Of a stretch of 64,000 bases of DNA, positions 774 through 50,766 are shown one piece after another. Origin of the DNA: a virus (lineage: Duplodnaviria > Heunggongvirae > Uroviricota > Caudoviricetes); IMG/VR virus record IMGVR_UViG_3300048930_000283; one strand, written 5' to 3'. The translations under genes were made by a program, and so were the position numbers. Numbering within the stretch: position 1 is the first letter of the stretch; each line of letters starts with the position of its first letter. The notes beneath the pieces were generated by a model. That model saw only the letters and a program-made list of their open reading frames with translations, was not told where the DNA came from and did not search any database.

Positions 774-2093
774 TTATGACAAGTTTTGAACTCTTGACAA
801 TCTGAAGTAGTAGTTTGATTGTGCTGCTAGTGTTGCTGCATCACCACTCAATGGATGGCTAATGACTGCATAACGAGTCTTGAAGCCAATCTTTGGTTGG
901 AATGTAGCAGGATCAACTGCTCTCATTAGCTGCAATGGAACATATGGGCAATAGAACAAGCCTGCATCAAATGGGCTGGTACCACGGTAACCAACCATCA
1001 TGAACTGATCTGCTGCACCGTTTGCCATATAAGGATCAACATAAACCTTATACTTGCCATTTAGAACACCGGCGAAGGTTGTTGATGCTTCATCTACGTT
1101 TAGGTTGGTACTCAATGCTGGAGCATAATCCAACTTACCTGCCATTGCTAGAGCTGATGCAACGTCTGCAGAACATAGGATGAAATTACCACGACCTCTA
1201 CGAGTTGTCTGAGCAATTCTGTTTGCTTCTTTTTCAACTTGGAAAAGCATACCCTTGAAACGCTCAACAGACCAACGACCATTTGAATCAACGTCTAGGT
1301 CGTAAGTACCTGCTGTAGTTGTGCCCTGAGAACCAGTCTTAGCGATCTTGTACATTGTACGAACAATCTCACGGTTGATTTCTGCAATAATTTCATTAGA
1401 AAGAATATTGCTTAGTTCACCTTCTGCGTCAAGACCATGAACTGCCTTAAGGTCTTGTTGCAATTCGATTGTGTACTCAGCCTTTAGAGCACGGCTCTTA
1501 GCAGTTGCAGTGTGCTTCTCGATTTTGAAGCTCATGGTATTCATGGTTAGACCATCAGTTGCACCCCAGTTTTGAGGATCTGTACCGTCAACACCTGTCA
1601 ATGGACGAGCACCATCAGAACCAGCAGCACCTGTGAAGCCTGGTGTACCATCCCATGGACCAAGACCATCTGTACCACCAACTGGGTTTGTACCAGCTGC
1701 TGCAGTACGTGTTGCAGAGAAGTTCGCATCAGCTTCATTGAATAGGGCTTCTGCGCCTGCTGCATTGGTGTAACGTGAGGTCAATGCAAAAACAAGACCT
1801 GTAGGCATTGTCATTGGCTGCACACCGCAGATATCATATGCAATCAACTGAGGCATTGCACGACGAACTAGACCGATAAGTACTGGGTCATAGTTCTGAA
1901 CGTTACCTGTTGCAGATGAAGGAATTGCCTCATTCAACACCTGACGCTCTTCTGCAACTGCTCTCTCTTGGTTCTCAAGAAGAACTGCAGTAACAGCCTT
2001 ACGATATGGGTTTTCAATCTTAGCTAGATCTGGATGATCTAGAACTGGAGACCACTTCTCCAATAGTTGCTCTTTACTTAACATTTTTGCCAT
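774..2093 (-). CDS. gp23: Major capsid protein, T4 gp23 family (439 aa).
   Basis: Blocks match T4 gp23 as recalled: EQLLEKWSPVLDHPDLAKIENPYRK; GLVRRAMPQLIAYDICGVQPMTMPTGLVFAL; KIEKHTATAKSRALKAEYTIELQQDLKAVHGLDAEGELSNILSNEIIAEINREIV. Position after gp22 matches T4 order. Confidence 0.95.
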   Translation of the reverse strand: MAKMLSKEQLLEKWSPVLDHPDLAKIENPYRKAVTAVLLENQERAVAEERQVLNEAIPSSATGNVQNYDPVLIGLVRRAMPQLIAYDICGVQPMTMPTGLVFALTSRYTNAAGAEALFNEADANFSATRTAAAGTNPVGGTDGLGPWDGTPGFTGAAGSDGARPLTGVDGTDPQNWGATDGLTMNTMSFKIEKHTATAKSRALKAEYTIELQQDLKAVHGLDAEGELSNILSNEIIAEINREIVRTMYKIAKTGSQGTTTAGTYDLDVDSNGRWSVERFKGMLFQVEKEANRIAQTTRRGRGNFILCSADVASALAMAGKLDYAPALSTNLNVDEASTTFAGVLNGKYKVYVDPYMANGAADQFMMVGYRGTSPFDAGLFYCPYVPLQLMRAVDPATFQPKIGFKTRYAVISHPLSGDAATLAAQSNYYFRLSRVQNLS

Positions 2094-2118
2094 TTTATTT
2101 CCTTTCTAGTCGAAACGA

Positions 2119-3384
2119 TTAAAACTTTAAATTCTTAGCGATTGCTTCAACATAGCTGTTGATTTGTTCAACTGGCTTTGTTGGTTCATCACTACCTGGG
2201 ATTGTATTCCCGCCTTTTGCCTTTGGAAAGTAATTTTCCTTGATGGTTCTCACCTTATCAGTAAAATCTTCCTCAGAATCAAACCCGACCTTCTCTGTCA
2301 ATTCAGCAAACTTCTCTTGCTCGACCTTAGTTAAATCAGACCCAACTTGTTCAACAATTGACTTCTTCTTAGTATTGTTCAATTGATCTTGGATTTCCTC
2401 ATTAACTGCAACCAAATCCTCCAGTTGCTTAGTCATTTCTTCGATTTGAGAAGCTTGATCTTCAACAATATCAAGTTTATCCTCTGGAATATCAAAATAA
2501 TGCTCTTTGAAGAGATCTTTCAGTCCATCAATAAAGCTATTCACAACTTCTACCTTCATAGCACTTTCTAAAGCAACAGCGTTGTCTTCAACCCACTGCT
2601 CAACTATAACGTTGAGGAATCCATCAACCTGTTCGACTAGCTCTGCTTTTACTTCTTCAACTGCCTCAGTAAGCTCTTCATCGAATTGCTCTTTGAGTTC
2701 ATTGATTCTTTGCTCTGCGGCCTGTTCAACCGCAGCTTCGAAAATTGTTTCTACTTTGGTTCGGAATTCTTCTGAAAGTTCCTCACCATTCATGATTGCA
2801 TCGATGTGCTCTTTAACACCGACTGGGTTCTTATCAACATTGTTTTTCTTGTTGGCCTCATTATCACCTTCAACTGAAGTTTTTCCGTCGGATAACTTAC
2901 CCCCAGAATCTTTCTTACCTGCGCCTGCTTTGATCCTAGCATTGTCACCATTGTCATCTTGCTTATCTGCAGATGCTGACATTTTTAAGGAACCCTTCTC
3001 ACCATCCTTACGACCCAGACCAGCCTTAATCTTAGCTGTCTTAGAAGAACCAGTCTCAGAACCATCGGTATTTGTCAGTTTGCCGAACGGATCTGAACCT
3101 TCATTGACTTTGACCTTATTTTCCTTAGAAACATCAGTTTCGCCATCATCTTCTTCATTATCATCACTACCACCTTCGTTAGAATCATCAGACTTGTTGT
3201 CAGAATCATCATCGGAAGAAGAATCAGAATCATCGTCATCAGTAATAGTTGTACCACTTTTAGTCTTGATGACTTCTTTCTCTTCTAAATCTTCAATGGA
3301 TTCGTTTAGCTCTTCTTCGGAAACACTTTCTTCCTTCTTGTGACCTTCCAAAATAGCCTTGATTTTATCTTCTAATGTTGGCAT
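2119..3384 (-). CDS. gp22: Prohead core scaffold protein (gp22-like; 421 aa). Long acidic D/E/S-rich N-terminal half and coiled-coil C-terminal half.
   Basis: Lies between gp21 and gp23 as in T4. Highly acidic low-complexity tract (DDDDSDSSSDDDSDNKSDDSNEGGSDDNEEDDGETD) plus heptad-like helical region typical of scaffolds. Longer than T4 gp22. Confidence 0.7.
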   Translation of the reverse strand: MPTLEDKIKAILEGHKKEESVSEEELNESIEDLEEKEVIKTKSGTTITDDDDSDSSSDDDSDNKSDDSNEGGSDDNEEDDGETDVSKENKVKVNEGSDPFGKLTNTDGSETGSSKTAKIKAGLGRKDGEKGSLKMSASADKQDDNGDNARIKAGAGKKDSGGKLSDGKTSVEGDNEANKKNNVDKNPVGVKEHIDAIMNGEELSEEFRTKVETIFEAAVEQAAEQRINELKEQFDEELTEAVEEVKAELVEQVDGFLNVIVEQWVEDNAVALESAMKVEVVNSFIDGLKDLFKEHYFDIPEDKLDIVEDQASQIEEMTKQLEDLVAVNEEIQDQLNNTKKKSIVEQVGSDLTKVEQEKFAELTEKVGFDSEEDFTDKVRTIKENYFPKAKGGNTIPGSDEPTKPVEQINSYVEAIAKNLKF

Positions 3385-3408
3385 TGTTTATATCTCCTTG
3401 AATACAAA

Positions 3409-3416
3409 TATTTATC
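3409..3416 (-). promoter_or_regulatory. T4-type late promoter-like box GATAAATA, 25 nt upstream of the gp22 ATG. A GGAG Shine-Dalgarno lies between.
   Basis: Minus-strand sequence GATAAATATTTG matches the T4 late consensus TATAAATA at 7/8. The same GATAAATA box recurs at a similar distance before gp25, gp4 and a gp48/54-like gene. Confidence 0.4.
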
Positions 3417-3452
3417 AAAATACAAATTTCACGAATCCAATCAATATTAATT

Positions 3453-4133
3453 TTACTTAGTTAGTTCTGTTAGGAGTCTAGAAAACTCCTTTATAAAGGT
3501 ATTTTCATCTATTCTACCCTTACGTTTATCCACTAAAGCCTGAATAATTCGACCATCCTCAAGCATCTCATATTCCACATTTTCCATAATACCATTAACA
3601 TAAGCACTAGGTGCCGACGGATCTGCAACTATATCCACCGTACTAAGGAAAAAATCCTCCTGAACCTCTTTAACACCATTATTCAATTGTTTAAGTGACC
3701 CCAGACCACGAGATGAAACACCAAGCTTGATACCCTCGTCGATTAGATTCTGAGCAATCTTACCCATCGGGGTATCTAAAATCTTAGCTCTACCAACTAC
3801 ATCAGTGTTACTCTTAAATGAGAGATTTTCAATAACGTGTGACACACGATCTAGATTGATCTGTGGCCCTTGTGGGTGACCCAGTTCACCCATAGATCTC
3901 TTATTTGAAATATAATCCGATTGATACTTTCCTAGAGCATTTTCCATGATACCCCTAGGATAGATACGTCCATTTCTATTCGGTGTATCTGCCTGCATGA
4001 AAACACCTTCTATATAGTAAGATTTCTTACCATTAGATGACTCGACTAGGTACTCAACTGACTCTGTTAATTCTGATATAAGTTTCATCTTAACACCCTG
4101 CCCTATATGCTTTAATTGTGTTTGCTCCACCAC
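3453..4133 (-). CDS. gp21: Prohead core protease (gp21-like, peptidase U9). Start may be the internal Met (MKLISEL...) at about 4088.
   Basis: Motifs recalled from T4 gp21 are present: NRNGRIYP, GELGHPQ, LGVSSRGLGSL, VDIVADPSAPSA. It sits between the portal and scaffold as in T4. Confidence 0.85.
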   Translation of the reverse strand: MVEQTQLKHIGQGVKMKLISELTESVEYLVESSNGKKSYYIEGVFMQADTPNRNGRIYPRGIMENALGKYQSDYISNKRSMGELGHPQGPQINLDRVSHVIENLSFKSNTDVVGRAKILDTPMGKIAQNLIDEGIKLGVSSRGLGSLKQLNNGVKEVQEDFFLSTVDIVADPSAPSAYVNGIMENVEYEMLEDGRIIQALVDKRKGRIDENTFIKEFSRLLTELTK

Positions 4134-4629
4134 CTGCAGAACCTACAGCAACAGTAAAGTTCAGTCTCATGTATGGATATGGTTTAGTAACTGGGATCTC
4201 TAACTGAGAACCTGCTGTCACCGCAGTTGCTGTACCATGATCTACCCAATGTGTCTGATCCAACGATCCCTGTGCTTTTGCTGTCACTGTTGCAGTTCCA
4301 TTAGATACTACATGGACCAATCCACTTACAGTATCATTGAATGATAGTGTGAATGTATCCTGCGCACCTGTAGCACCTGTTCCATAATTTTCTAAGAACA
4401 CAAATGATGGAAACTTCAATAGTGAGTTTGTACTTGAAACTGTCACAGTATCAGCGTCTGTAACTCCAGCAACAGTTAATGTCACTTCTTGTGTGGTAAC
4501 AGGATCAACAAATTTAAAGGTGTCTGCAGCAAGAAGATAATGTGCTGCACCAAAATTTATTGTCCAAGTATCTGTAGCCCAACTTGTTGAACTGATAGCA
4601 ACTTTTCTTTTTATTTGTGTTAGTTTCAT
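4090..4629 (-). CDS. Hypothetical beta-rich protein (179 aa) in the T4 gene 67/68 (prohead core) position.
   Basis: Assigned by position between the portal and protease. T/S/V-rich beta-strand composition. No motif recognised. Confidence 0.45.
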   Translation of the reverse strand: MKLTQIKRKVAISSTSWATDTWTINFGAAHYLLAADTFKFVDPVTTQEVTLTVAGVTDADTVTVSSTNSLLKFPSFVFLENYGTGATGAQDTFTLSFNDTVSGLVHVVSNGTATVTAKAQGSLDQTHWVDHGTATAVTAGSQLEIPVTKPYPYMRLNFTVAVGSAGGGANTIKAYRAGC

Positions 4630-4726
4630 CTTTATTCCTTAGTCAACTTTTTCACTGCTGTAGCAATACCATTTGATCGTTTCCCGTACTTGAACATAGC
4701 ATCACTATCCATCTTATTTGTGTGGT

Positions 4727-4897
4727 TTAAAGCTGCATCTCTGTATTTGTTCCTACTAACTGAGAGGCAACTGAAACTCGCATGTTTTCCAATGCCGAAG
4801 CAATCTTATCTGAAATAGCAGCGTTAAAACTCTGTTCAGCAGAGTCTAAATTGCCATCAGCAATATTGTTTAGCATGTCTTCAATATCTCTACTCAT
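4727..4897 (-). CDS. Small acidic protein (56 aa; MSRDIEDMLNNIADGNLDSAEQSFNAAISDKIASALENMRVSVASQLVGTNTEMQL), possibly a gp67-like prohead core protein.
   Basis: Its ATG overlaps the portal stop (ATGA at 4894-4897). It falls below the 60-aa cutoff of the supplied track and was found by manual translation. Confidence 0.35.
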   Translation of the reverse strand: MSRDIEDMLNNIADGNLDSAEQSFNAAISDKIASALENMRVSVASQLVGTNTEMQL

Positions 4898-6579
4898 TTT
4901 TGTACTCCTTGTTGTTCTTGATCTTGCTGTTCTTCTTCATCCTGTGGCGGCGCATTTGGATCCTGGAACGGATATCCGCCACCTTCCATACCATCACCAC
5001 CCGGTGGCATCATACCATCCATTGGCATTCCTTGCATTGTTGGTTGAGCAGTAGGATCATCCTTCTCTTCCTCAATCTCCTCATCCATCTTATCAATATC
5101 TTCGTCTGTTAATCTTAACAGAGTCTTTTGAACCCACTTCTTACTGAAAAACTTACCTAGATAAGGATCAACCTGCGGTAGAAGTGCCATTCTAGAAGTA
5201 AACATCTCTTGTTCTTTTAGTTCATCAAAGAAATTATCTCTTTGGAACCTAAACTTTATCTTATTAGATAATATTTCATCCCATTCTAAATTGTTGCATA
5301 CACCTGTTAATATCAGTTGTGTCTTCAAAACATCCATTAACAATACAGAAAATCTTCGGCGCAGTTTGTCAATAAACTTCTGAAACTTAACTTCATCTCT
5401 TGAAACTTCGGTACTACGTCCTAAACTGAATCCAGTATCTGGTTGAAGTCTAGAAACAGGAATGTTCAATGATTGATATAACTTCTTCTGAAAGTATTCA
5501 ACCGCCTCCAATTGGCCAGATATGTTTGTTGCACCTGGTAGAGTAGTAATTTCTGTTCCCTTACTATTGTCTCTACGAGGCATCCAAAAATCCTCAAGCA
5601 TCGACATATACTTCTTATCATCACGAATCTCACCAGTACGAGCATCATAGACCATCTTATTACGATACCTGTTCATGAGCTCTTTCATGTACTGCTCTGC
5701 CTTCATCTTTGGAAGGTTACCCACATCCACATAAAATATTCTTCGTTCAGGTGCTCTAGCGATGAAATATACTACTGTAGCATCCTCAAGCATTCTTAAT
5801 TGACTTGCAGGTCTTATGGCCTTTTGCACGTAACTAAGAACTGTGTTTGTGTTCCCATCTAAGTACCCAGACGGGCAATAAATTACTGAATCTGGACTCA
5901 ACTTAACACCTTGTACCGATGCTGTACCAGGATTTCCCTGCTGATTCTGAGCATTAGTACCAAATCCAGCATCACTATAAATGAAATACTCATTGATACT
6001 TTCAATTACTTCAACACCAGAAGGAGATTTTGTCTTTTTAATCTCCTTAACCTTTCGCATCTTGGTTGCATCAATAAGACGCAACTCAGAGATACCACGC
6101 TTAGTGTTATTCTTATCTACTACTACGTGATAGTACAGTCTACCATCAACATACCAGCGACGGAATATATCTGATGCTAACCTCTCAAATTTTAAAAGAG
6201 CTTGGCACTTCTGAAATTCATCTTGAATCTGTTCCTTCAACGAATCAGAGAACTCCAGTTCATCTAATATGATCTCAGCTATAGGACTATCGTCCTCATG
6301 TGGTATCGCCTCATTGACAATGTCCTGAATTGCAATGTCCACCTCAGGATATAATGAAATCTCACGACACTTTTGTATTGCCTGTGTTTCGTCTTTTACC
6401 AGTGCATTGGTATCAAAATAGACACCGTAATATGCTGCATTGGTAGCAGATGCAACAATTGATGCACCTTCATCATCTACAGGTAAAGCAAAAGAAGCAG
6501 ACTTATCTTCGCCTGGTTTCTCTTTTTTCTTAATCGTTAAACCGAATAAATTCAACCCAGTTTCATCAAACAACGCCAT
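4894..6579 (-). CDS. gp20: Portal vertex protein (gp20-like; 561 aa).
   Basis: Matches to T4 gp20 as recalled: FRRWYVDGRLYYH; YVDVGNLPKMKAEQYMKELMNRYRNKMVYDARTGEIRD; YFDELKEQEMFTSRMALL. It has the acidic C-terminus. Confidence 0.95.
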   Translation of the reverse strand: MALFDETGLNLFGLTIKKKEKPGEDKSASFALPVDDEGASIVASATNAAYYGVYFDTNALVKDETQAIQKCREISLYPEVDIAIQDIVNEAIPHEDDSPIAEIILDELEFSDSLKEQIQDEFQKCQALLKFERLASDIFRRWYVDGRLYYHVVVDKNNTKRGISELRLIDATKMRKVKEIKKTKSPSGVEVIESINEYFIYSDAGFGTNAQNQQGNPGTASVQGVKLSPDSVIYCPSGYLDGNTNTVLSYVQKAIRPASQLRMLEDATVVYFIARAPERRIFYVDVGNLPKMKAEQYMKELMNRYRNKMVYDARTGEIRDDKKYMSMLEDFWMPRRDNSKGTEITTLPGATNISGQLEAVEYFQKKLYQSLNIPVSRLQPDTGFSLGRSTEVSRDEVKFQKFIDKLRRRFSVLLMDVLKTQLILTGVCNNLEWDEILSNKIKFRFQRDNFFDELKEQEMFTSRMALLPQVDPYLGKFFSKKWVQKTLLRLTDEDIDKMDEEIEEEKDDPTAQPTMQGMPMDGMMPPGGDGMEGGGYPFQDPNAPPQDEEEQQDQEQQGVQK

Positions 6580-6599
6580 AATAATCCTTTACAGTTCTA

Positions 6600-7187
6600 T
6601 TAGATCGATACTCCAATTCCGCCAATCGGGGTATTTATACCAACCGAGGCTGAAATACCAGTAGGAGCATTTGTGGTCTCCCAGAAGGAATATGCAATCT
6701 CAACCGTAAATTCCTCAATTCGATCATTCTCAGAGAATTGAAGGTTTATATCACCCACACTAACAGGCCAGCAATCAGCTATCGTGTATGACTTCAAAAT
6801 AACACCGTTTCTATCCAACTGATGCACTGACATATTTGTGGTAACTGCCATTGGGTTGGTGATACCGGTATTATTTTTAACGTTGTTTATAGTATTTGAC
6901 CAAGACTCAAATGCATTACGGATACCAAAATCTGTATCATTAAGAACACTGATCTGCCAATTAGTAAATGTTCGTTCCCCTGGTAGTTTAACTTCACGAC
7001 CACGATACATTACTGGTGCAATACCAAGATGTGATCCAGGCAAAGATGCTCCATGACATAAAAACTGAGCCTTTCGTCCAGCATCTGTTCCACCAGATAC
7101 AAATCCTGGGAAGGTCAACTCAACTTTAAATTGGTTGGCACGGGCACCACCACCAAGAAAATTACTCTTAAATTCCAAAATCGACAT
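6600..7187 (-). CDS. gp19: Tail tube protein (gp19-like; 195 aa).
   Basis: N-terminal ANQFKVELTFPG, central GERTFTNWQISVLND and C-terminal CWPVSVGDINLQFSENDRIEEFTVEIAYSFWE match T4 gp19 blocks. It is adjacent to the sheath gene. Confidence 0.9.
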   Translation of the reverse strand: MSILEFKSNFLGGGARANQFKVELTFPGFVSGGTDAGRKAQFLCHGASLPGSHLGIAPVMYRGREVKLPGERTFTNWQISVLNDTDFGIRNAFESWSNTINNVKNNTGITNPMAVTTNMSVHQLDRNGVILKSYTIADCWPVSVGDINLQFSENDRIEEFTVEIAYSFWETTNAPTGISASVGINTPIGGIGVSI

Positions 7188-7201: not shown

Positions 7202-7963
7202 TTAAACCGACTTATTCTTGCTACCCAGAGGTCGCCCACCTTTTACAGAACCCGGTACTCTACCTTTAGAAAATATTGGGTTTGCTGAAATAAATTTTTC
7301 AAATGATATAATATCTTGATTTCTTTTAGTATATTTATATGATTTTTCACCATCATTATACCAACGAAACCCTTTATTCTTAGGACCACCACGCTTACCT
7401 AGCTCAGATTGGGTGTTTGAATTGAAGAATCCAACACCCATTTTTCTAGCGGCTGCCAACCCTATCTTAGCGTATTCAATTTGTTGCTCTTTGGATGCCC
7501 CGCAAAAACCAAGTCCCATTTCTCTATTCTTAGCACCTCCACGTTTACCACCCAGTGATGCAATCTCTTTGAGTTTTGCTGGATCAGTGTTAGCTACTCG
7601 TTCCTTCTGATAGGCAGATCGTTGTTCAAATGTCCAAGCATGAATACCAATACCTCTTTCAACTACTGTTCTACCGTAATGACTGTTACCATATCCACCA
7701 GGTTTTACGTTATACGTATCTTTCCGTTGAATGAAATCTTCCGTAACTAATTCTGCTTCTTTTGCGTATGCCAATTCTTCAGAATCGAATGTGTGGAGAA
7801 TGTCCTTCTTAAAATTGCCCACCCCATACTTCTTTATAGCATTCTTAAGATACTTAGAAGATCCCATATAACCATCATCTACGTTGGTGTCGGCCACTCT
7901 ATGAACCCCAACGTAGATTTTACCGTTAAGTAAATTGGTTATTTGGTATATTACGTATGACAT
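7202..7963 (-). mobile_element. Free-standing GIY-YIG homing endonuclease (Seg/I-TevI-like; 253 aa) inserted between the sheath and tail-tube genes. The C-terminal half carries repeated basic GG.K..G (NUMOD-like) DNA-binding motifs.
   Basis: YVIYQITNLLNGKIYVGVHR gives GIY-(10 aa)-YVG, followed by conserved R and E (AKEAELV). C-terminal repeats: GGKRGGAKNREMG, GKRGGPKNKGFRWYN, GGRPLGSKNKS. It sits precisely between two universally adjacent core genes. Confidence 0.8.
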
Positions 7964-9822: not shown

Positions 9823-11541
9823 TCACAACAGTTCACGAAGGCCTAAGTACTCAGGAGATTCTTCGTTAATCCAGTCCTGGCTAGTTATGATGGTAGGTGG
9901 CATGAGTTCATCTTCCATTTCCCTTACCTTATCACTGTACATTCTCGACCTAATATCCTTATCAGTTAGGTCACTAAACCATGGTTGCATTACGAGCCAA
10001 GCAAATAACCAAAGAACTGCTACAGAATCATCACGGAAACCCTCATCTGCCTCCCAGTTACCCGAGTCACTCTGCACGAAAGTTGCCAACTCCTGAATCA
10101 TTTGCCAATCATCTACTATTAGTTGCTTCTTCTCGATAATATCCTTAAGGTTAGCGCAACCAATTCTCTTAGTCTTCTTAGTGGTTCTGATACCAGGATA
10201 GTCATCTGCACCCTGCTTACCCAGAACATCACCTGTCTTAGTCCAGAACATCTCACCATATTCGTAAGTATAGTAAATTTCCTCTGCTACTTGACCACCA
10301 ATGTCATTGATCTCTACTAGGATATATGCGTCATTGTACTTCTTAGCCATGTTGTAGCAGATAGCAGAGTACATCAGTGGTGCTATATCTGCGTTGTTGT
10401 ACGTGGCAACAATCTTATGTGGATACTCAGTAACGTCAAATATACCGAACGCTGAGGAATCTAAGTGTCTGCCTCTGGATACGTCTACTGTCATGACATA
10501 CTTACGATCTACATCAGGCTTTTCATATATTTTAAGACCCTTATATTCACCTTTTGCATGTTGGAAATCTGGATTTCTATATGCTAATGCTCTGAGTGTT
10601 TCTCCAGTCAGCAACGTTTTAGACGACCCGAGAAATTCCATGCCAACCTCTTGGGTATACTTTAACTCACCCAAGACAGCTTTCTGTTCATCCGCCCATT
10701 TTTGATCTCTCTCTGGATGTTCCCACCAATCAAATCTTTGATGAATAAATCCATTGATACCTTTTTCAGCGTCGGTCCAAAATTTATAGAACATATTATA
10801 TCCATTTGGTGTGGAAGACATAAGAATCTTAGTCTCTTTACCAGATGATAATGTAGGGAACACTGATGTAAAAAATTCATCTGCTACGTGATTTTCAACG
10901 TGAGCAAATTCGTCGAGGTACAAAAGTGAAATAGAGTATCCTCGAATTGCGCTAGAACTTGTGGCGGACGCTAGAACACGGGATCCATTTTCTAACGCTA
11001 CTGATCCCTTATTCCACTCTACCACACCAGACTGCATCCATTTAGGGAGAAATTCATATGCAGTTTCAACTCGTTGTAGAATTTCTCTAGCTGTCTGTGC
11101 TTTATTAGCTAGAATAGCAACTGTTTTCTCGTCATTGAAAAGAATATACCAACAGATAAATGCTGCCGTTGTCGTGGTATTATGATGTAATAATCCATTA
11201 GCATAGAATGTGTGGTTCCCAGTAACTGAAAGGTCGTACATATGTTCTTTTCTATCAGTTTTTGTTATTGTTATTACTTCTTCTAATCCATATTGTCCCT
11301 TAATTAGATCACCGCACCTCAAATCTTTAACAAATACCTCAGAATTATTTTCGAGAAAAACTATATGATTGTCTGCACATTCTACTGAGCAGTTTGTTGT
11401 TACTAATTGATAAACCTCATATTCAATGGTCTTATTGATATGAGTCACATCAACCCATCCATCCTCCGTTTCTATTTCCCAATCAGAAACTTCAACAGTA
11501 TCTACAAATTTTCTCTCTATTGAGTCAGAAAGTTTATACAT
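9823..11541 (-). CDS. gp17: Large terminase subunit, C-terminal fragment (572 aa). The first roughly 121 aa are the C-terminal part of a split mini-intein (Hint blocks B, F, G). Residues from Thr122 on are the TerL C-extein (rest of the ATPase plus the nuclease domain).
   Basis: The N-terminus carries ...ECADNHIVFLENNSEVFVKDLRCGDLIKG (block B-like: TxxH variant, then L..GD) and EHMYDLSVTGNHTFYANGLLHHN (blocks F/G, terminal HN), followed by +1 Thr. The extein TTTAAFICWYILFNDEKTVAILANKAQ...GSRVLASATS...LLYLDEFAHV...STPNGYNMFYKFWTD aligns with T4 gp17 from just after its Walker A (SRQLGK|TTVVAIF...). Confidence 0.9.
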   Translation of the reverse strand: MYKLSDSIERKFVDTVEVSDWEIETEDGWVDVTHINKTIEYEVYQLVTTNCSVECADNHIVFLENNSEVFVKDLRCGDLIKGQYGLEEVITITKTDRKEHMYDLSVTGNHTFYANGLLHHNTTTTAAFICWYILFNDEKTVAILANKAQTAREILQRVETAYEFLPKWMQSGVVEWNKGSVALENGSRVLASATSSSAIRGYSISLLYLDEFAHVENHVADEFFTSVFPTLSSGKETKILMSSTPNGYNMFYKFWTDAEKGINGFIHQRFDWWEHPERDQKWADEQKAVLGELKYTQEVGMEFLGSSKTLLTGETLRALAYRNPDFQHAKGEYKGLKIYEKPDVDRKYVMTVDVSRGRHLDSSAFGIFDVTEYPHKIVATYNNADIAPLMYSAICYNMAKKYNDAYILVEINDIGGQVAEEIYYTYEYGEMFWTKTGDVLGKQGADDYPGIRTTKKTKRIGCANLKDIIEKKQLIVDDWQMIQELATFVQSDSGNWEADEGFRDDSVAVLWLFAWLVMQPWFSDLTDKDIRSRMYSDKVREMEDELMPPTIITSQDWINEESPEYLGLRELL

Positions 11542-12545
11542 TTATCTATTGTACCTTGTTTATCTTTCTTATAATCTTTTTCTCTAATTCTAAGTAACTT
11601 ATATCCATCTTTAATTAAGAGTTCCTCACGGAACTTCTCTCTGGTAGGATTAACTCTTGATTCAGAATGCCAATAATCACCATCAAATTCTATTACTTTT
11701 TTAGTTTTGACATCTACAAAATCTAACAACAGTCCTCTATTTTCTATCATTAATCTGAACTCTTTATTTTTATACTTTTTCATGTCAGATCTATCATAAG
11801 TTGCATAATAAATGTTCTCACTAATATACAACTTCACAATCTCATTAAAAAGCTCCTGAGATATTTTACTATAATTTTGCTTTTTAAAATTCTTAATCCA
11901 TTTTTCAGTTTTCATTGAGTACTTTTTTGTACCTATCTCAGTTCCATACTTAGTGGTAAACCAATTAAGATTTTTTGTTTGTGCTTTTTTATATTCAAAG
12001 TCTGAGTTATAGTATTCTCTGCAAAACGCATTTCTGCTTTTATCATTTAATGTTGGGTTATTTAGTTTGGCTTTAGATTTTGCTATTTTTACTATTTCTT
12101 CATTATGAACAATTGATTTTGATGACCAAGGTGAAAATTTACCTCCATGAGCATACGCAGGATTATTCTTTCCTCTAAATTTATCAGCTAATCTTTCATT
12201 CTTTAATTGCATATTGTTTGTAACAATGCGGTATTCTTTTGCACTAACATTGTGCATTTTATAATGAGTTTGTAACGTCTCAGCTCTATAACTACAAAGA
12301 GGACACTCTACCCAATTCTCTTTATTTTCTTTTGTATAAACTAAATGTGACTCCTTCACTGCACAACTTAAACATATCCTTTGCTTATATTTTACCTCAT
12401 TGCATTTACTGCATGTATTCCATCCATCATTTATACATGAATCACATAACTTCTGTTTCCACATCCCTAGAAAGTCATTTTGACACCTTAAACACACCTT
12501 TTTCAGTGTCTTGTTTGAACCCTTCTTTGAACTTTTGCCATTCAT
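11517..12545 (-). mobile_element. Free-standing homing endonuclease (342 aa) between the two terminase fragments. N-terminal Cys-rich zinc-finger-like region and C-terminal Vsr-like PD-(D/E)xK nuclease (EDxHD-type family).
   Basis: CxxC clusters (CLRCQ, CDSC, CSKC, CLSC, CPLC). Near the C-terminus, IEFDGDYWHSESRVNPTREKFREELLIKDGYKLLRIRE resembles the Vsr/DUF559 catalytic core (FVDGCFWH...). It is in a different frame and overlaps both terminase fragments (71 nt and 25 nt). Confidence 0.7.
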
Positions 12546-12918
12546 AAAACTCTCCTAAAGTAACTTCAACTATCTTATTAGTTGATTTTTGTTTTAACTT
12601 TACTTTAGTATTTATTCCCAAACACTTCCCTGCTTGGCGAAACAACATCGTGATAACCTTTCGATTATCAGCATACGCCTGAATCATTTTCTTTTGGTAT
12701 GGATACAACTTAAATGGTATTAGGCCTCGGTCAACATGTACTACCTTGACATAATTCTCAATAAAATAGATTGGGTCTTTTCGGCATCTCTTCAACTCGT
12801 CAAACATACTTTTAGTTAAAGAGACCTCCATTCCAGCAGGCCGCAAATTTGAATTATTGCGGAATGCTAGTTGTTGTAGATACTGCTCTATAGATAATGG
12901 GAGATCTAAGTTACTCAC
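12475..12918 (-). CDS. gp17: Large terminase subunit, N-terminal fragment (147 aa). The TerL N-extein runs up to the Walker-A GK. From Cys99 on (about 12478..12624) it is the 49-aa N-terminal part of the split intein. GTG start overlaps the gp16 stop.
   Basis: ELKRCRKDPIYFIENYVKVVHVDRGLIPFKLYPYQKKMIQAYADNRKVITMLFRQAGK aligns with T4 gp17 up to its P-loop (...SRQLGK). Then CLGINTKVKL is an intein block A-like start, and the ORF stops 49 aa later. Confidence 0.85.
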   Translation of the reverse strand: MSNLDLPLSIEQYLQQLAFRNNSNLRPAGMEVSLTKSMFDELKRCRKDPIYFIENYVKVVHVDRGLIPFKLYPYQKKMIQAYADNRKVITMLFRQAGKCLGINTKVKLKQKSTNKIVEVTLGEFYEWQKFKEGFKQDTEKGVFKVSK

Positions 12919-49274: not shown

Positions 49275-49849
49275 ACCAAAATATATTTGACGTTGTTAGG
49301 AGAGACCCAAAGTATTCTACCACCAATTCGTGGTCTTGGTTCATGCGTAACGTGCGTGACCTGGCTACCGCTCAGGGAGTAAAACCATTGGCACTTATGG
49401 GGGATAACCAAATCCACCAAACAGATAGGATACTGCCTGGGTATTTCTATCAATTTTTCTATGACCCAAAATATAAGGAAGAACTACCTTTTTATGACAC
49501 GTTTCCTTTGGCAATTCCTTTCAGTGCAACGGGTCAGCACTTTACGTGTTTGAATATGCATATGATTTACCCACGTGCTAGGTTGTTACTCCTATCTAAA
49601 CTATTAGTATTCGCATCTGACGATAAATTGTCAGACAAGATGAGGATCAACTTATCGTGGAAATTTATAAGCAACGCATCTAGATTCCCGGGTGTGGATA
49701 AATGTGTTCGAATGTATCTAAAAAGTCACGTAAAATCTAAGTTTCTAAAGATTCCACCTGTCGACTATTTTTCAGCAATATTTTTGCCAGTGGAATCGAT
49801 GAAAAAGATGACCGTGCAAGAAGTGTGGAAGAAAAACTCACGATACTAA
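49271..49849 (+). CDS. Hypothetical virion-associated protein (192 aa), co-transcribed with gp4 (T4 gene 2/3 region).
   Basis: ATGA overlap with gp4. No motif recognised. Confidence 0.4.
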   Translation: MNQNIFDVVRRDPKYSTTNSWSWFMRNVRDLATAQGVKPLALMGDNQIHQTDRILPGYFYQFFYDPKYKEELPFYDTFPLAIPFSATGQHFTCLNMHMIYPRARLLLLSKLLVFASDDKLSDKMRINLSWKFISNASRFPGVDKCVRMYLKSHVKSKFLKIPPVDYFSAIFLPVESMKKMTVQEVWKKNSRY

Positions 49850-50766
49850 GCCATGTTTGGGTTTTTGAATCCGTATGCGCGAGGAACTAAATTGTGATCT
49901 TCATAGTTTTCAAGTATGCAGTCATATGTAAATCCAACTGCGGTGTCATGATCTATCTTTAATAATATCCTAGTTTTGTTTATTGATTTTGTATTTGCAT
50001 ATGTCTGTTTGAACAATTGAACAAATTCTTCCCAGGAGTTAACATGGTTATTACTTATAATTTCTACTACCTTCTTTCGTCTTCGATTGAACAAGAGAAC
50101 GTTACTAGGTTTTCTTCCTATTAATTTTTGTCTTATCTTATCACTATGCGCGGGTGATTGTGGTCCCAGCGGCATTCCTCTCCGTTTTGCCGCAATTTTT
50201 TCAACATGTTCTCGTGGTTTAGGGACTCCTCTTTGTCTTTCGGATATCAGCCTTTTTGATTTTTCACTGTGTTTTCTTCCCGTAGCAGCATTTACCCAAA
50301 TAACACCATCAATATACTCTCTCAGAAGCCTATCTGTTTCTCCAGTTAAAGTGTTTCTCGCATTTAGTAATTTCGTTGCTTCAGTTCGTGCAATTGCATA
50401 CTGCCAAGACGTTAGTGCCCTATCATATGATCTCTGAAACATTGTTATAGCATTTACCATCTTAGATTTTATTCTAACGTCAGAAAACATTTTGGATAGC
50501 AGTCGATGAGCAATGAAATGTTCCCTATGAGTCAATACAACTAAGTTGCATGGATCATTTTTCATCTCATCAGTTGAACACAGTGAAACAGGAAATATGT
50601 GGTGGCATTCAGAGTTCCCCGGCCCATACATATTTTTACCCATTACCCTTTTGTTGTATTTATTTGGTGCATAAAAATACCTAGATTCAATTAGATTTAT
50701 GTACCACCGAGTATATTTGTTGTTTAACGCAACTAATTTAATTTCATTGATATAAATATTGGACAT
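49846..50766 (-). mobile_element. Free-standing HNH homing endonuclease (Mob-like; 306 aa) with central NUMOD-like repeats.
   Basis: HNH core GNSECHHIFPVSL...CNLVVLTHREHFIAHR. Repeats GRKHSEKSKRLISERQRG, REHVEKIAAKRRG, AHSDKIRQKLIGRKP. Convergent with the neighbouring plus-strand genes. Confidence 0.8.

Follow-up and report, generated by a model that had tools for sequence, protein, structure and literature searches.

AceL-TerL, GOS-TerL and the consensus Cat intein (PDB 6dsl) are said to have been reported by Thiel in 2014, by Bachmann and Mootz in 2015 and by Stevens in 2018. Fractured genes, including a Lake Gatun 'Terminase' locus, were described by Dassa, London, Stoddard, Schueler-Furman and Pietrokovski in 2009 and are of phage origin (PMC2677866). 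Contiguous terminase inteins have been found in mycobacteriophages, where TerL1-a, in a terminase_1 family protein, carries an in-frame endonuclease domain (Kelley et al. 2016, PMC5050341), and in the Ackermannviridae, where the intein of Mooltan was noted in PMC6486243 and some records carry an annotation. The prototype of the EDxHD family of endonucleases is I-Bth0305I, whose gene lies in a group I intron of recA and which binds DNA through NUMOD/HTH modules (Taylor et al. 2011, PMC3239194; PDB 3r3p). Here, we analysed a stretch of 64,000 nucleotides of viral DNA, hereafter named the window. It very probably contains a genuine fractured terL, in which a composite selfish element sits at the Lys/Thr codon junction of the Walker-A P-loop, with a Vsr-like endonuclease gene in the intein break.

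Organisation of the terL locus

From the ORF list and the sequence, terL lies on the minus strand as two ORFs, with a third one in between:

12918..12475, minus strand: N-half ORF, 147 aa; TerL residues 1-98 up to ...MLFRQAGK, then CLGINTKVKLKQ... (Cys plus 48 aa) and a TGA stop
12545..11517, minus strand: middle ORF, 342 aa, in the +1 frame relative to terL
11541..9823, minus strand: C-half ORF, 572 aa; 121 aa up to ...NHTFYANGLLHHN, then TTTTAAFICWY... and the remaining TerL
12625..12918, minus strand: terL N-extein, 98 codons, ending at the first half of Walker A (...FRQAGK)
9823..11178, minus strand: terL C-extein, 451 aa plus stop, beginning with Thr+1 of Walker A (TTTTAAF...)

The middle ORF overlaps the upstream terL-N ORF by 71 nt and the downstream terL-C ORF by 25 nt. 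A first-pass annotation, made from the sequence alone, had described an N-extein ending in ...FRQAGK and followed by Cys, 48 residues and a stop, exactly as we find. It had also described a stretch of about 121 aa with Hint blocks, fused to the rest of TerL starting TTTAAF; this stands, except that four Thr residues follow HHN, not three.

Both halves match the PHROG terminase large subunit (PHROG 5989 for the N-half, E 2.9e-24). The N-extein starts with a GTG that overlaps the terS stop and aligns to T4 gp17 from residue 88 onward. The C half matches Pfam Terminase_6N (72.6 bits) and Terminase_6C (37.8 bits); its extein has an intact Walker B (LLYLDE), includes the nuclease domain and aligns to the T4 gp17 structures 3ezk and 3cpe. 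When spliced in silico, the 549-aa TerL aligns with T4 gp17 (...SRQLGKTTVVAIF...) without a gap over the junction (E 7e-93), RQAGK-TTTT being paired with SRQLGK-TTVV. Removal of the insert restores a colinear host protein in this alignment, so that the predicted split intein interrupts Walker A precisely at GK|T, the position proposed at first.

The locus belongs to a T4-like block of late packaging and tail genes, gp14-gp15-gp16(TerS)-gp17-gp18-gp19-gp20-gp21-gp22, with one ORF at the gp13 position. No second terL-like sequence was found in the 64-kb window, and promoter and terminator signals between the three ORFs did not exceed chance (17 found, 14.3 expected). The first-pass annotation had presented this genomic context as special. 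That claim is weakened by about 39 non-redundant, diverged IMG/VR viral contigs with the same layout and by several cultured phages with related ones: the arrangement is already known from metagenomes and is common in related phages. More useful by-products are the allelic series, the nested endonuclease genes and the split terL of cultured phages.

Intein halves and their proposed splicing

The insert comprises the following coding fragments:

12478..12624, minus strand: N-intein fragment, 49 aa, with Cys1, block A (CLGINTKV), strand beta-2, helix alpha-1 (LGEFYEW) and a 22-aa tail
12475..12477, minus strand: stop codon of the N-intein, read from the sequence
11179..11541, minus strand: C-intein fragment, 121 aa, with block B (ECADNHIV), block F (HMYDLSV) and block G (FYANGLLHHN)

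Judged from these elements, the P-loop insert is a class-1, naturally split intein with an atypical S2 break (S2 as defined in PMC13014065). A Cys, the N-terminal nucleophile, directly follows ...FRQAGK, and the C-terminal ...LLHHN|TTTT provides His-Asn plus Thr+1. The two parts (49 + 121 aa) are in separate ORFs and the break falls after helix alpha-1 and before block B, in a variable loop after alpha-1 (...IGEFY) according to the alignment with the contiguous allele of Dickeya phage LIMEstone1. The Hint blocks seen in the first-pass annotation are recovered by profile searches, the fused halves scoring 37.3 with Pfam Intein_splicing (cut-off 35.8) and the C-intein 22.0 with TIGR01443 intein_Cterm (cut-off 15.6). 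In addition, the fused intein matches the PDB inteins gp41-1 (6qaz, E 7e-6) and VidaL (6vgv, E 1.5e-5). Since the AF2 model of the fused intein, made from the single sequence, has a pLDDT of 44, it is the sequence profiles that carry the fold assignment.

The N-intein aligns with allelic inteins, the contiguous Ackermannviridae one among them, and is 47% identical (tblastn) to that of a related locus, L006. Seven allelic inteins, among them the contiguous mini-intein of LIMEstone1, share Cys1, the block-B His, the terminal His-Asn and Thr+1 without exception. Block B reads A-D-N-H instead of the usual T-x-x-H: its His is invariant, while Ala replaces Thr throughout the allelic family (A-D-x-H). 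This variant is presumably functional, because the family includes inteins of viable cultured phages. The C-intein compares with that of L006 at dN 0.17 and dS about 2 and is, on the resulting dN/dS of about 0.09, under purifying selection. Between the same two loci the C-intein is 75% identical and the exteins 43-45%, which indicates horizontal transfer of the intein. An empty allele is found in L005 (...PRQMGK|SQTTAAF), whose exteins are 66-88% identical to those of the window and which shares 59 of 90 nt around the insertion site with the spliced window allele; both sequences are candidate substrates of the endonuclease.

In the mechanism that we propose, the three ORFs would be co-transcribed, and TerL(1-98)-IntN (49 aa) and IntC (121 aa)-TerL(99-549) would be made as separate polypeptides. 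The short N-intein would dock on the larger C-intein, completing the HINT fold. Class-1 protein trans-splicing would then proceed through an N-S acyl shift at Cys1, transesterification to Thr+1, cyclisation of the terminal Asn aided by the penultimate His, and an O-N shift. The product would be a 549-aa TerL of about 63 kDa, with the P-loop RQAGK-TT restored; the TerL ATPase could not be active before this step. The 342-aa protein would be translated from its own strong SD and ATG, both of which lie within the N-intein codons. Its predicted activity is to bind DNA via the zinc modules and to cut the intein-less terL of co-infecting relatives near the P-loop codons, whereupon repair would copy the intein and the endonuclease gene into the cut allele (homing). 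We infer splicing, cleavage and target site from the sequence.

Splicing being inferred, the TerL fragments might also function without covalent ligation, the intein halves acting as a dimerisation module only. A precedent comes from Aeromonas phage Aeh1 (PMC3045599), in which NrdA is split by an endonuclease and the fragmented ribonucleotide reductase reportedly assembles via mobile-element-derived interaction domains. We nevertheless consider this improbable, given the invariance of every splicing residue listed above in the allelic family, the purifying selection on the C-intein, and the roughly 170 intein residues between the P-loop Lys and Thr, which should block nucleotide binding; Kelley et al. 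(PMC5050341) reason likewise for TerL inteins.

It is very unlikely that the terL locus is decaying, as a pseudogene or a dead end of the homing cycle, with another terminase elsewhere and an inactive endonuclease. The visible part of the genome is 64 kb, and all close relatives have an identical endonuclease, which makes its activity not inferable from the population. However, the window holds no other terL, and exteins, intein and endonuclease all retain their catalytic residues. The low dN/dS of the C-intein also speaks against decay, as do the persistence of the layout across loci whose endonucleases are only 26-41% identical and the single split terL of the plaque-forming phage PhiW-14.

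The endonuclease gene and its start signals

Within the composite element, the middle ORF has the following features:

11517..12545, minus strand: free-standing homing-endonuclease gene, Vsr-like / EDxHD-type, 342 aa (assigned from Pfam DUF559, homologues and AF2)
12363..12494, minus strand: two Cys4 zinc-ribbon-like motifs (CLRC..CDSC, CSKC..CLSC), endonuclease residues 18-61, read from the sequence
12222..12314, minus strand: Ros/MucR-type C2H2 zinc finger (C81, C84, H94, H98), endonuclease residues 78-108
11520..11813, minus strand: Vsr-like nuclease domain (D275, I-E286-F-D-G-D-Y-W-H293, E303, E322), endonuclease residues 245-342

The Vsr/DUF559-like core proposed at the outset is confirmed by a Pfam DUF559 match of 27.3 bits (cut-off 20.6). 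The protein has a Vsr-type nuclease fold (AF2 model, pLDDT 84.9) and 154 homologues, many of them labelled very-short-patch-repair endonuclease. D275, E286 and H293, which correspond to the family's metal-binding Asp, its Glu at the place of Vsr Phe62 and its general-base His, are invariant among 41-51 homologues, and IEFDGDYWH aligns to IEVNGVYW(H213A) of I-Bth0305I. The last acidic catalytic position, E303 here, is D in most family members. The zinc-finger-like cysteines reported in the first pass correspond to the two Cys4 ribbons and the C2H2 finger. The first Cys4 motif aligns with Cys pairs of several homologues; over the Cys4 region the model confidence is low (pLDDT 58-72). For the finger, the endonuclease family profile matches Ros (2jsp, E 1.6e-4), PF05443 ROS_MUCR is precomputed on several homologues, and in the homologue alignment C84, H94 and H98 are invariant and C81 nearly so. 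Pfam gave no NUMOD match in the 342-aa protein, where the Cys4 ribbons and the finger take the place of NUMOD/HTH repeats. The predicted DNA-binding architecture is thus different from that of the I-Bth0305I family, on the same nuclease.

Of the 80 viral loci retrieved, nearly all have a relative of the endonuclease placed between intein halves or nested in them, the intein host genes being terL (at two sites), gp41/DnaB-type helicases and other P-loop ATPases. Such a spread over intein breaks is what one would expect if the nuclease is a mobile partner of inteins. In its own population, represented by four near-identical contigs, the endonuclease is 100% identical, and no direct sign of ongoing homing at the window site was seen.

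Could the middle ORF be a domesticated Vsr/DUF559-type nuclease with another role (repair, competitor-phage exclusion or defence), merely housed in the intein break? The Pfam assignment (DUF559/MTES_1575), the repair-endonuclease labels of the homologues and zinc modules unlike the NUMOD/HTH modules of I-Bth0305I are compatible with this idea. We hold it to be highly improbable, as the relatives occupy intein breaks almost throughout the 80 loci and the fold and catalytic residues match those of I-Bth0305I, an experimentally proven homing enzyme; moreover, cutting the terL of competitors would not differ mechanistically from homing.

The two terL ORFs share a reading frame, with 459 codons (1377 nt) between them, and the relatives L015-L020 and L027 do have a continuous terL ORF across the endonuclease gene. 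Even so, a truly continuous terL (either with an unsplit intein that includes the endonuclease domain in frame, or free of any insert) broken by an assembly or sequencing artefact, the frameshift alternative raised in the first pass, is ruled out: the terL frame has 58 stop codons inside the endonuclease ORF, close to the expectation from synonymous shuffles (56 +/- 3.4), and about 70 between the two terL ORFs, so that one or a few indels cannot account for the split, three independent JGI assemblies agree at 99.9% identity through the whole locus, and dozens of diverged loci have the same layout.

Two further elements lie upstream of the endonuclease start:

12550..12556, minus strand: Shine-Dalgarno AGGAGAG of the endonuclease gene, 4 nt before the ATG (12543-12545), read from the sequence
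12555..12608, minus strand: predicted RNA hairpin (tentative), 9-bp stem with arms 12600-12608 and 12555-12563, ending within the endonuclease SD

The intein codons for T-L-G-E-F-Y-E contain both the SD and the ATG. L016, L027, L037/L040, L039 and L056 have the same two signals at +68 nt, counted from the Cys1 codon, and L032 has the same ATG with TGGAGA as SD. The hairpin has an MFE z-score of -3.0, equalled by 1 of 200 shuffles; across nine related loci 80% of cells pair and covariation is modest, at 0.188 (shuffles: 0.090, with 3 of 500 attaining the observed value). As it also occurs in L006, which is without an endonuclease gene, the hairpin may not be regulatory. On the other side, the C-intein ORF has a weak SD only (AAGG, 13 nt upstream) and its ATG sits 25 nt inside the endonuclease ORF, ...CINFLTQ* being dual-coded with MYKLSDSI of the C-intein; the same overlap is present in relatives.

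It is possible, if rather doubtful, that the endonuclease gene and the split intein did not come together recently by chance but have long been adapted to each other, as a composite through which the selfish gene governs the expression of essential host fragments. This would fit with the location of the endonuclease SD and ATG in conserved intein codons, T-(I/L)-G-E-(F/L)-Y, with a covarying hairpin that ends in this SD, and with the weak SD of IntC-TerL-C, whose start is located within the stretch that encodes the conserved C-terminus of the endonuclease (C-I/L-N-F-L dual-coded with M-x-K-L-S-D). In that case, ribosomes on terL-N would gate the translation of the endonuclease, to which TerL-C synthesis would in turn be translationally coupled, an 'addiction' that would stabilise the element and set the stoichiometry of the two TerL halves.

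Comparison with known systems

In its sequence organisation, the window locus is a 'fractured gene' in the sense of Dassa et al. 2009 (PMC2677866), as recognised in the first pass. Here as there, the host gene consists of two same-strand ORFs, each with a split-intein half, with a free-standing endonuclease gene between them (Vsr-like or GIY-YIG in their loci) whose 3' end overlaps the downstream ORF, by 25 nt in the window. Their terminase intein has an unusual break point too, with a C part of 122 aa against 121 aa here. Their loci have a hairpin before the endonuclease start, often containing TATAAATA; in the window locus this motif is absent and the hairpin is a tentative prediction. Finally, theirs are short read assemblies, mostly truncated, while the window locus is complete and lies in a 64 kb T4-like context; it sits at GK|T.

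AceL-TerL and GOS-TerL, with which the first-pass annotation had compared the locus, are of like build: naturally split T4-like terL inteins of metagenomic origin, with an S2 break after helix alpha-1 and a short N and a long C part (25/104 and 37/115 aa, against 49/121 aa). However, they have Cys+1 (and Ser1 in GOS-TerL), unlike the Cys1/Thr+1 of the window intein. Cat (6dsl) matches the L070 intein at a third terL site (QE..|C-x-FLGS) with E 2e-16 and is absent from the matches of the window P-loop intein even at E<=10. With the site taken from Cat, AceL-TerL and GOS-TerL appear to be analogues at another terL site, not alleles.

Allelic relatives are found in the Ackermannviridae (LIMEstone1, Vi01, Maynard, Marshall, Mooltan and others), whose TerL mini-intein is homologous, occupies the same bond (SGK|C...SHN|TT) and is 35-41% identical in the C part. 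The P-loop TerL intein family counts 311 cultured-phage records, mostly from this group. In contrast to the split window intein with its endonuclease gene, the Ackermannviridae intein is part of an unbroken polypeptide, splices in cis and contains no endonuclease gene; LIMEstone1 instead has a homing-endonuclease gene immediately upstream of terL. The cultured, viable Delftia phage PhiW-14 (NC_013697) has a single terL locus, split at the same bond (GK|C...HN|TTT) and in the same intein loop, but with a 48-nt gap between the halves and no endonuclease gene. Its 155-aa N fragment is unannotated in the record, and the split has seemingly been overlooked.

The enzyme differs from I-Bth0305I in being free-standing in an intein break rather than intron-encoded, in carrying two Cys4 ribbons and a Ros/MucR-type C2H2 finger rather than NUMOD/HTH modules, and in having Glu at the position equivalent to D222. 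TerL1-a, a 'classic' P-loop intein, separates the invariant Lys of Walker A from the nucleophilic Thr in a TerL ATPase, as the window intein does. TerL1-a is contiguous and resides in a terminase_1 protein, whereas the window intein is split, resides in a terminase_6 (T4-type) TerL and is accompanied by a separate endonuclease gene.

The terL locus and the reality of the split

On the minus strand of the window, terL is carried by two ORFs with an endonuclease gene between them that overlaps both.

ORFs of the split terL locus (window positions)
12918..12475, minus strand: terL-N ORF, 147 aa; TerL residues 1-98 ending ...MLFRQAGK, then in frame CLGINTKVKLKQKSTNKIVEVTLGEFYEWQKFKEGFKQDTEKGVFKVSK and a stop
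12545..11517, minus strand: endonuclease ORF, 342 aa; frame different from that of terL; strong AGGAGAG Shine-Dalgarno (SD) sequence 4 nt before the ATG
11541..9823, minus strand: IntC-TerL-C ORF (C-intein fragment and rest of TerL), 572 aa; starts MYKLSDSIERKF..., runs through ...EHMYDLSVTGNHTFYANGLLHHN, then TTTTAAFICWYILFN... to the end of TerL

Both outer ORFs match terminase PHROGs in profile searches, and Pfam places Terminase_6N and Terminase_6C on the third ORF (11541..9823). The intein parts are recognized as well: intein_Cterm (TIGR01443) is above its cut-off, and the joined parts score 37.3 with Pfam Intein_splicing (gathering score 35.8) and match the PDB inteins gp41-1 (E 7e-6) and VidaL (E 1.5e-5). 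The middle ORF contains DUF559 above the Pfam cut-off. Upstream lie T4-type gp14, gp15 and TerS, with another ORF at the place of gp13; downstream are sheath, tube, portal, prohead protease and scaffold. The layout proposed by the first-pass annotation, a terL gene split at an intein around a middle ORF in a T4-like packaging module, is confirmed by the ORFs, their profile matches and the gene context. Its description needs one correction: four threonines, not three, follow HHN. By megablast, the locus has no match among 50,697 phage records, and the phage is absent from INPHARED.

The two terL ORFs share one frame, 459 codons apart, and about 70 stops lie between them in that frame (hand count of the straight translation). 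Inside the endonuclease ORF, 58 terL-frame stops are observed versus 56 +/- 3.4 in synonymous shuffles. Three JGI contigs, each from its own sample (3300048837, 3300061720 and 3300048587), encode an endonuclease protein 100% identical to that of the window; over terS, terL-N, the endonuclease gene and IntC, their nucleotide identity with the window is 99.9%. A search of IMG/VR with the endonuclease yielded 80 loci; after our own grouping of near-identical loci, the endonuclease lies between RQxGK/C... and ...HN/(T/S) terL halves in ~39 of them (slashes mark intein-extein bonds). These stops, contigs and further loci eliminate an assembly frameshift, and the split announced by the first-pass annotation is real. 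The idea that the shared frame is generally left over from a contiguous ancestor was rejected: the non-redundant loci (same grouping) are distributed 17:10:12 among the three frames, which is not significant.

Insertion site, conservation and proposed splicing

Once joined, the exteins form a 549-aa protein that aligns without gaps through the junction with T4 gp17 (E 7e-93; window mlfRQAGKTTTTAAFicwyilFN, T4 gp17 nlSRQLGKTTVVAIFlahfvcFN). Therefore, the element sits exactly between the Walker-A Lys and Thr, as had been read from the sequence at first pass. This Lys/Thr position is the 'classic' P-loop intein site of Kelley et al. (PMC5050341). Seven inteins at this bond were aligned: those of the window, of the loci L006, L009, L010 and L011 (the last in a helicase), of Delftia phage PhiW-14 and the contiguous one of LIMEstone1. 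Cys1, the block-B His (A-D-x-H), the F-block M-(Y/F)-D-L, the terminal His-Asn and Thr+1 are kept throughout. Every split version in the alignment breaks in one variable loop, after ...IGEFY (helix alpha-1) and before RKFVESF.... A break after alpha-1 corresponds to S2, the 'atypical' split position of AceL-TerL and GOS-TerL (PMC13014065).

The C part of the window intein is 75% identical to that of L006, for exteins that are 43-45% identical, and shows a dN of 0.17 with a dS of about 2. Together, these figures argue for protein-level selection on the intein and for its horizontal movement. In a separate locus, L011 (IMGVR_UViG_3300035698_014834, 1926..3962), a split intein occupies the P-loop (GSAGLGK/C... 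and ...LSHN/TLILGN) of a DnaB/gp41-type helicase. Its C part is 49% identical to that of the window, and one intein lineage apparently uses the GK/T bond of unrelated ATPases.

The sequences establish how the genes are laid out, that catalytic residues are conserved, that TerL is exactly colinear once the insert is removed, and that other alleles are empty or differently filled. In the proposed mechanism, the 147-aa and 572-aa products would associate through their intein parts and undergo class-1 trans-splicing, in which a Cys1 thioester would form, followed by transfer to Thr+1 and Asn cyclisation. The product would be a ~63-kDa TerL with an intact P-loop, containing the junction peptide ...QAGK/TTTTAAFICWYILFNDEK. 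The 342-aa protein would cut intein-less terL alleles, leading to homing. By analogy, such a split must be compatible with packaging, because the only terL of cultured PhiW-14 is split at the same bond. Four other explanations, in which the split is an artefact, the halves complement each other non-covalently, the locus is decaying or the nuclease does not act in homing, are each very improbable.

The endonuclease gene and its overlaps

A large protein database contains 154 relatives of the endonuclease, many with PF04480/PF18741 and some with PF05443 (ROS_MUCR). The single sequence gave only noise against the PDB (phmmer), but a 41-sequence profile reached the I-Bth0305I catalytic domain (3r3p, E 2e-4) and the Ros zinc finger (2jsp, E 1.6e-4); neither NCBIfam nor PHROGs returned a match. 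D275, E286, G289, H293 and E322 are invariant in the homologues. The motif I-E-F-D-G-D-Y-W-H aligns with Vsr I61...H69 and with I-Bth0305I IEVNGVYW-H213 (H213A in the crystal). In the N-terminal part, residues 18-61 form two Cys4 ribbons and C81, C84, H94 and H98 a C2H2 finger of Ros/MucR type; NUMOD repeats are absent from this part. The zinc-finger-like cysteines and Vsr/DUF559-like core noticed at first pass are thus both recovered.

Both ends of the endonuclease gene overlap intein codons, and a predicted hairpin leads into its SD.

Features at the start of the endonuclease gene (window positions)
12550-12556 (SD) and 12543-12545 (ATG), minus strand: inside the intein codons T-L-G-E-F-Y-E
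12555-12608, minus strand: predicted RNA hairpin of 9 bp ending in the endonuclease SD; z -3.0

An AGGAGA...ATG at +68 nt from the Cys1 codon is also found in L016, L027, L037/L040, L039 and L056; L032 has the ATG at +68 nt too, but with TGGAGA. In the window and these relatives, the dual-coded SD and ATG map to the conserved intein stretch T-(I/L)-G-E-(F/L)-Y. The 3' end is dual-coded as well: the nucleotides for the conserved endonuclease C-terminus C-(I/L)-N-F-L also encode M-x-K-L-S-D, with which IntC begins (window 11517-11541, same positions in these relatives). Because both gene ends are dual-coded with conserved intein residues, the comparison hints at a composite element whose parts have evolved together for a long time, and not at a recent insertion.

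Across nine loci, 80% of the cells of the hairpin pair and its covariation is matched or beaten by 3/500 shuffles, for a small sample and a structure derived from one of the same sequences. The hairpin is also present in L006, which lacks the endonuclease gene. For these reasons, the hairpin is no more than suggestive. Around the IntC start, no RNA structure was found (fold z 0.04). In some of the loci of Dassa et al., the endonuclease brought a late promoter (PMC2677866). Here, promoter and terminator scans of the locus are at chance level and the locus lacks the T4 late-promoter motif TATAAATA, so that the idea of a late promoter belonging to the endonuclease was dropped. The simplest reading is that the ORFs are co-transcribed as part of the late operon.

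The closest relatives of the window endonuclease (41% identical), in L015-L020 and L027, are encoded wholly inside a continuous terL ORF of about 1000-1130 aa, in another frame.

Examples of nested endonuclease genes (positions in each locus)
L016: terL 3619..7011, nested ORF 3989..4828
L027: terL 3571..6597, nested ORF 3911..4852

Across these nested genes the terL frame stays open for ~300 codons, with 0 stops versus 18.9 +/- 2.8 and 22.9 +/- 2.8 in synonymous shuffles. This opening looks selected, since the two nested endonucleases share only 54% identity. The arrangement reads as an endonuclease gene overprinted on a contiguous intein. For actinobacteriophages, a recent report describes inteins that harbour out-of-frame and antisense endonucleases (bioRxiv 10.1101/2025.01.02.630785); L015-L020 and L027 would add, for T4-like phages, a Vsr-like case on the same strand.

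A search of the window found no additional inteins or copies of the endonuclease. A free-standing SegE-like GIY-YIG endonuclease gene lies between tail-sheath (gp18) and tail-tube (gp19) at 7202..7963, minus strand (Pfam SegE_GIY-YIG 34.1 bits, GIY-YIG 24.0 bits), and is a second selfish nuclease in the structural block of the fractured terL. At 49846..50766 (minus strand), a 306-aa ORF without Pfam match may be another free-standing endonuclease-like gene; its similarity to the 386-aa NUMOD3-containing ORF of L004 is weak (23% over ~200 aa, E 3e-4).

Allelic states and comparison with described systems

At the P-loop bond, L005 has no insert and Ackermannviridae have a contiguous mini-intein. 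The intein is split with no endonuclease gene in PhiW-14 and L006, and split with a free-standing one in the window and ~39 contigs; in L016 and L027, the ORF is continuous and the endonuclease gene is nested in it out of frame. These states come close to a natural series illustrating the Dassa/Pietrokovski model of endonuclease acquisition by inteins, and are useful for research on the gain, carriage and loss of endonuclease genes by inteins. The window contributes a complete, unambiguous fractured terL in 64 kb of T4-like genome.

Contigs 99.9% identical to the window differ from it only at Walker B, which in the window is uninterrupted (SISLLYLDEF, 10915-10945).

Walker-B insertions in these contigs (positions in each contig)
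L093 4408-4872 and L094 2439-2925: second split intein, no endonuclease gene; SIS/CVTGDTKI... and ...VTSHN/CLFLDEF
L092 (=L004) 4408-5999: same split intein with the 386-aa free-standing NUMOD3-containing ORF

Three stages of a homing cycle appear to coexist at Walker B in what looks like one phage species, a snapshot of an ongoing cycle. L005 (IMGVR_UViG_3300023208_000053, 1247..3988), whose exteins are 66-88% identical to those of the window, has the empty P-loop site PRQMGK/SQTTAAF. Its terL is instead fractured three codons further into Walker B than that of L004 (SISLLY/CVAGNTKI... and ...YVSHN/CDEFAH), by a different intein and with a 237-aa GIY-YIG-like ORF between the halves. L010 (IMGVR_UViG_3300010344_000531, 3495..7068) carries three terL inteins, at the P-loop, upstream of Walker B and at a third site (site 3; QEVS/C... 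and ...KN/CEFLGSS); in the second insertion, the N-intein and a GIY-YIG endonuclease read as a single ORF.

Three cultured phages offer systems where trans-splicing of the packaging ATPase could be studied in vivo. In PhiW-14 (NC_013697), terL is split at GK/C...HN/TTT into 2482..2949 and 2998..4755, with a 48-nt gap and no endonuclease gene; in the record, the 155-aa N-terminal ORF (2482..2949) is unannotated and the annotated 'terminase large subunit' begins with the C-intein. Its predicted junction peptide is ...ARQMGK-TTTVAAF.... In Vibrio phage Va1 (MK387337.2), terL (1155..2315 and 2284..4572) is split at site 3 (QNFE/CVSGSTII... and ...VLNHN/CNFLGSS), and the C-intein/TerL-C protein, annotated 'putative terminase', starts with a Vsr-like endonuclease (IEFQGNYWH) as an in-frame fusion. 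The 297-aa 'terminase large subunit' of Salicola phage SCTP-2 (MF360958.1, 2992..3885) is a middle TerL piece, with a P-loop C-intein at its start and a Walker-B N-intein at its end (SISLLY/CLDGETTV...). The genes upstream are on the opposite strand, so that no N-terminal piece adjoins it, and the record has three intein-like places; terL of this cultured jumbo phage may be dispersed in three or more pieces.

The organisation of the window locus is that of the fractured genes of Dassa et al. 2009, who described a Myoviridae-type terminase locus with an intein 'fractured at an unusual point' and a 122-residue C part (PMC2677866). Like the window intein, AceL-TerL and GOS-TerL reside in TerL and are split at S2, but they have Cys+1 where the window has Thr+1. 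Their consensus intein, Cat (PDB 6dsl), matches the L070 intein at site 3 (QE../C-x-FLGS, E 2e-16) and does not match the window intein. From the Cys+1 and these Cat comparisons, we infer that AceL-TerL and GOS-TerL are analogues at another terL site, their site being deduced through 6dsl. The fractured-gene architecture recognized in the first-pass annotation holds. At the window's own bond, Ackermannviridae carry a contiguous mini-intein, and the intein family occurs in 311 cultured-phage records, mostly Ackermannviridae, some of them annotated as intein.

Architecture, atypical split, Vsr-like endonuclease family, TerL host and Lys/Thr P-loop site have each been described before, and the locus is a textbook 'fractured gene' that will not surprise a specialist. 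What is new is the previously uncharacterised Cys1/Thr+1 atypically split P-loop intein of a T4-type TerL and its pairing with a Vsr-like endonuclease bearing a predicted zinc-finger/Ros-type DNA-binding part. Unrelated in sequence to Cat/AceL-TerL, this split family is of possible interest to protein engineering for orthogonal short-N-fragment inteins.
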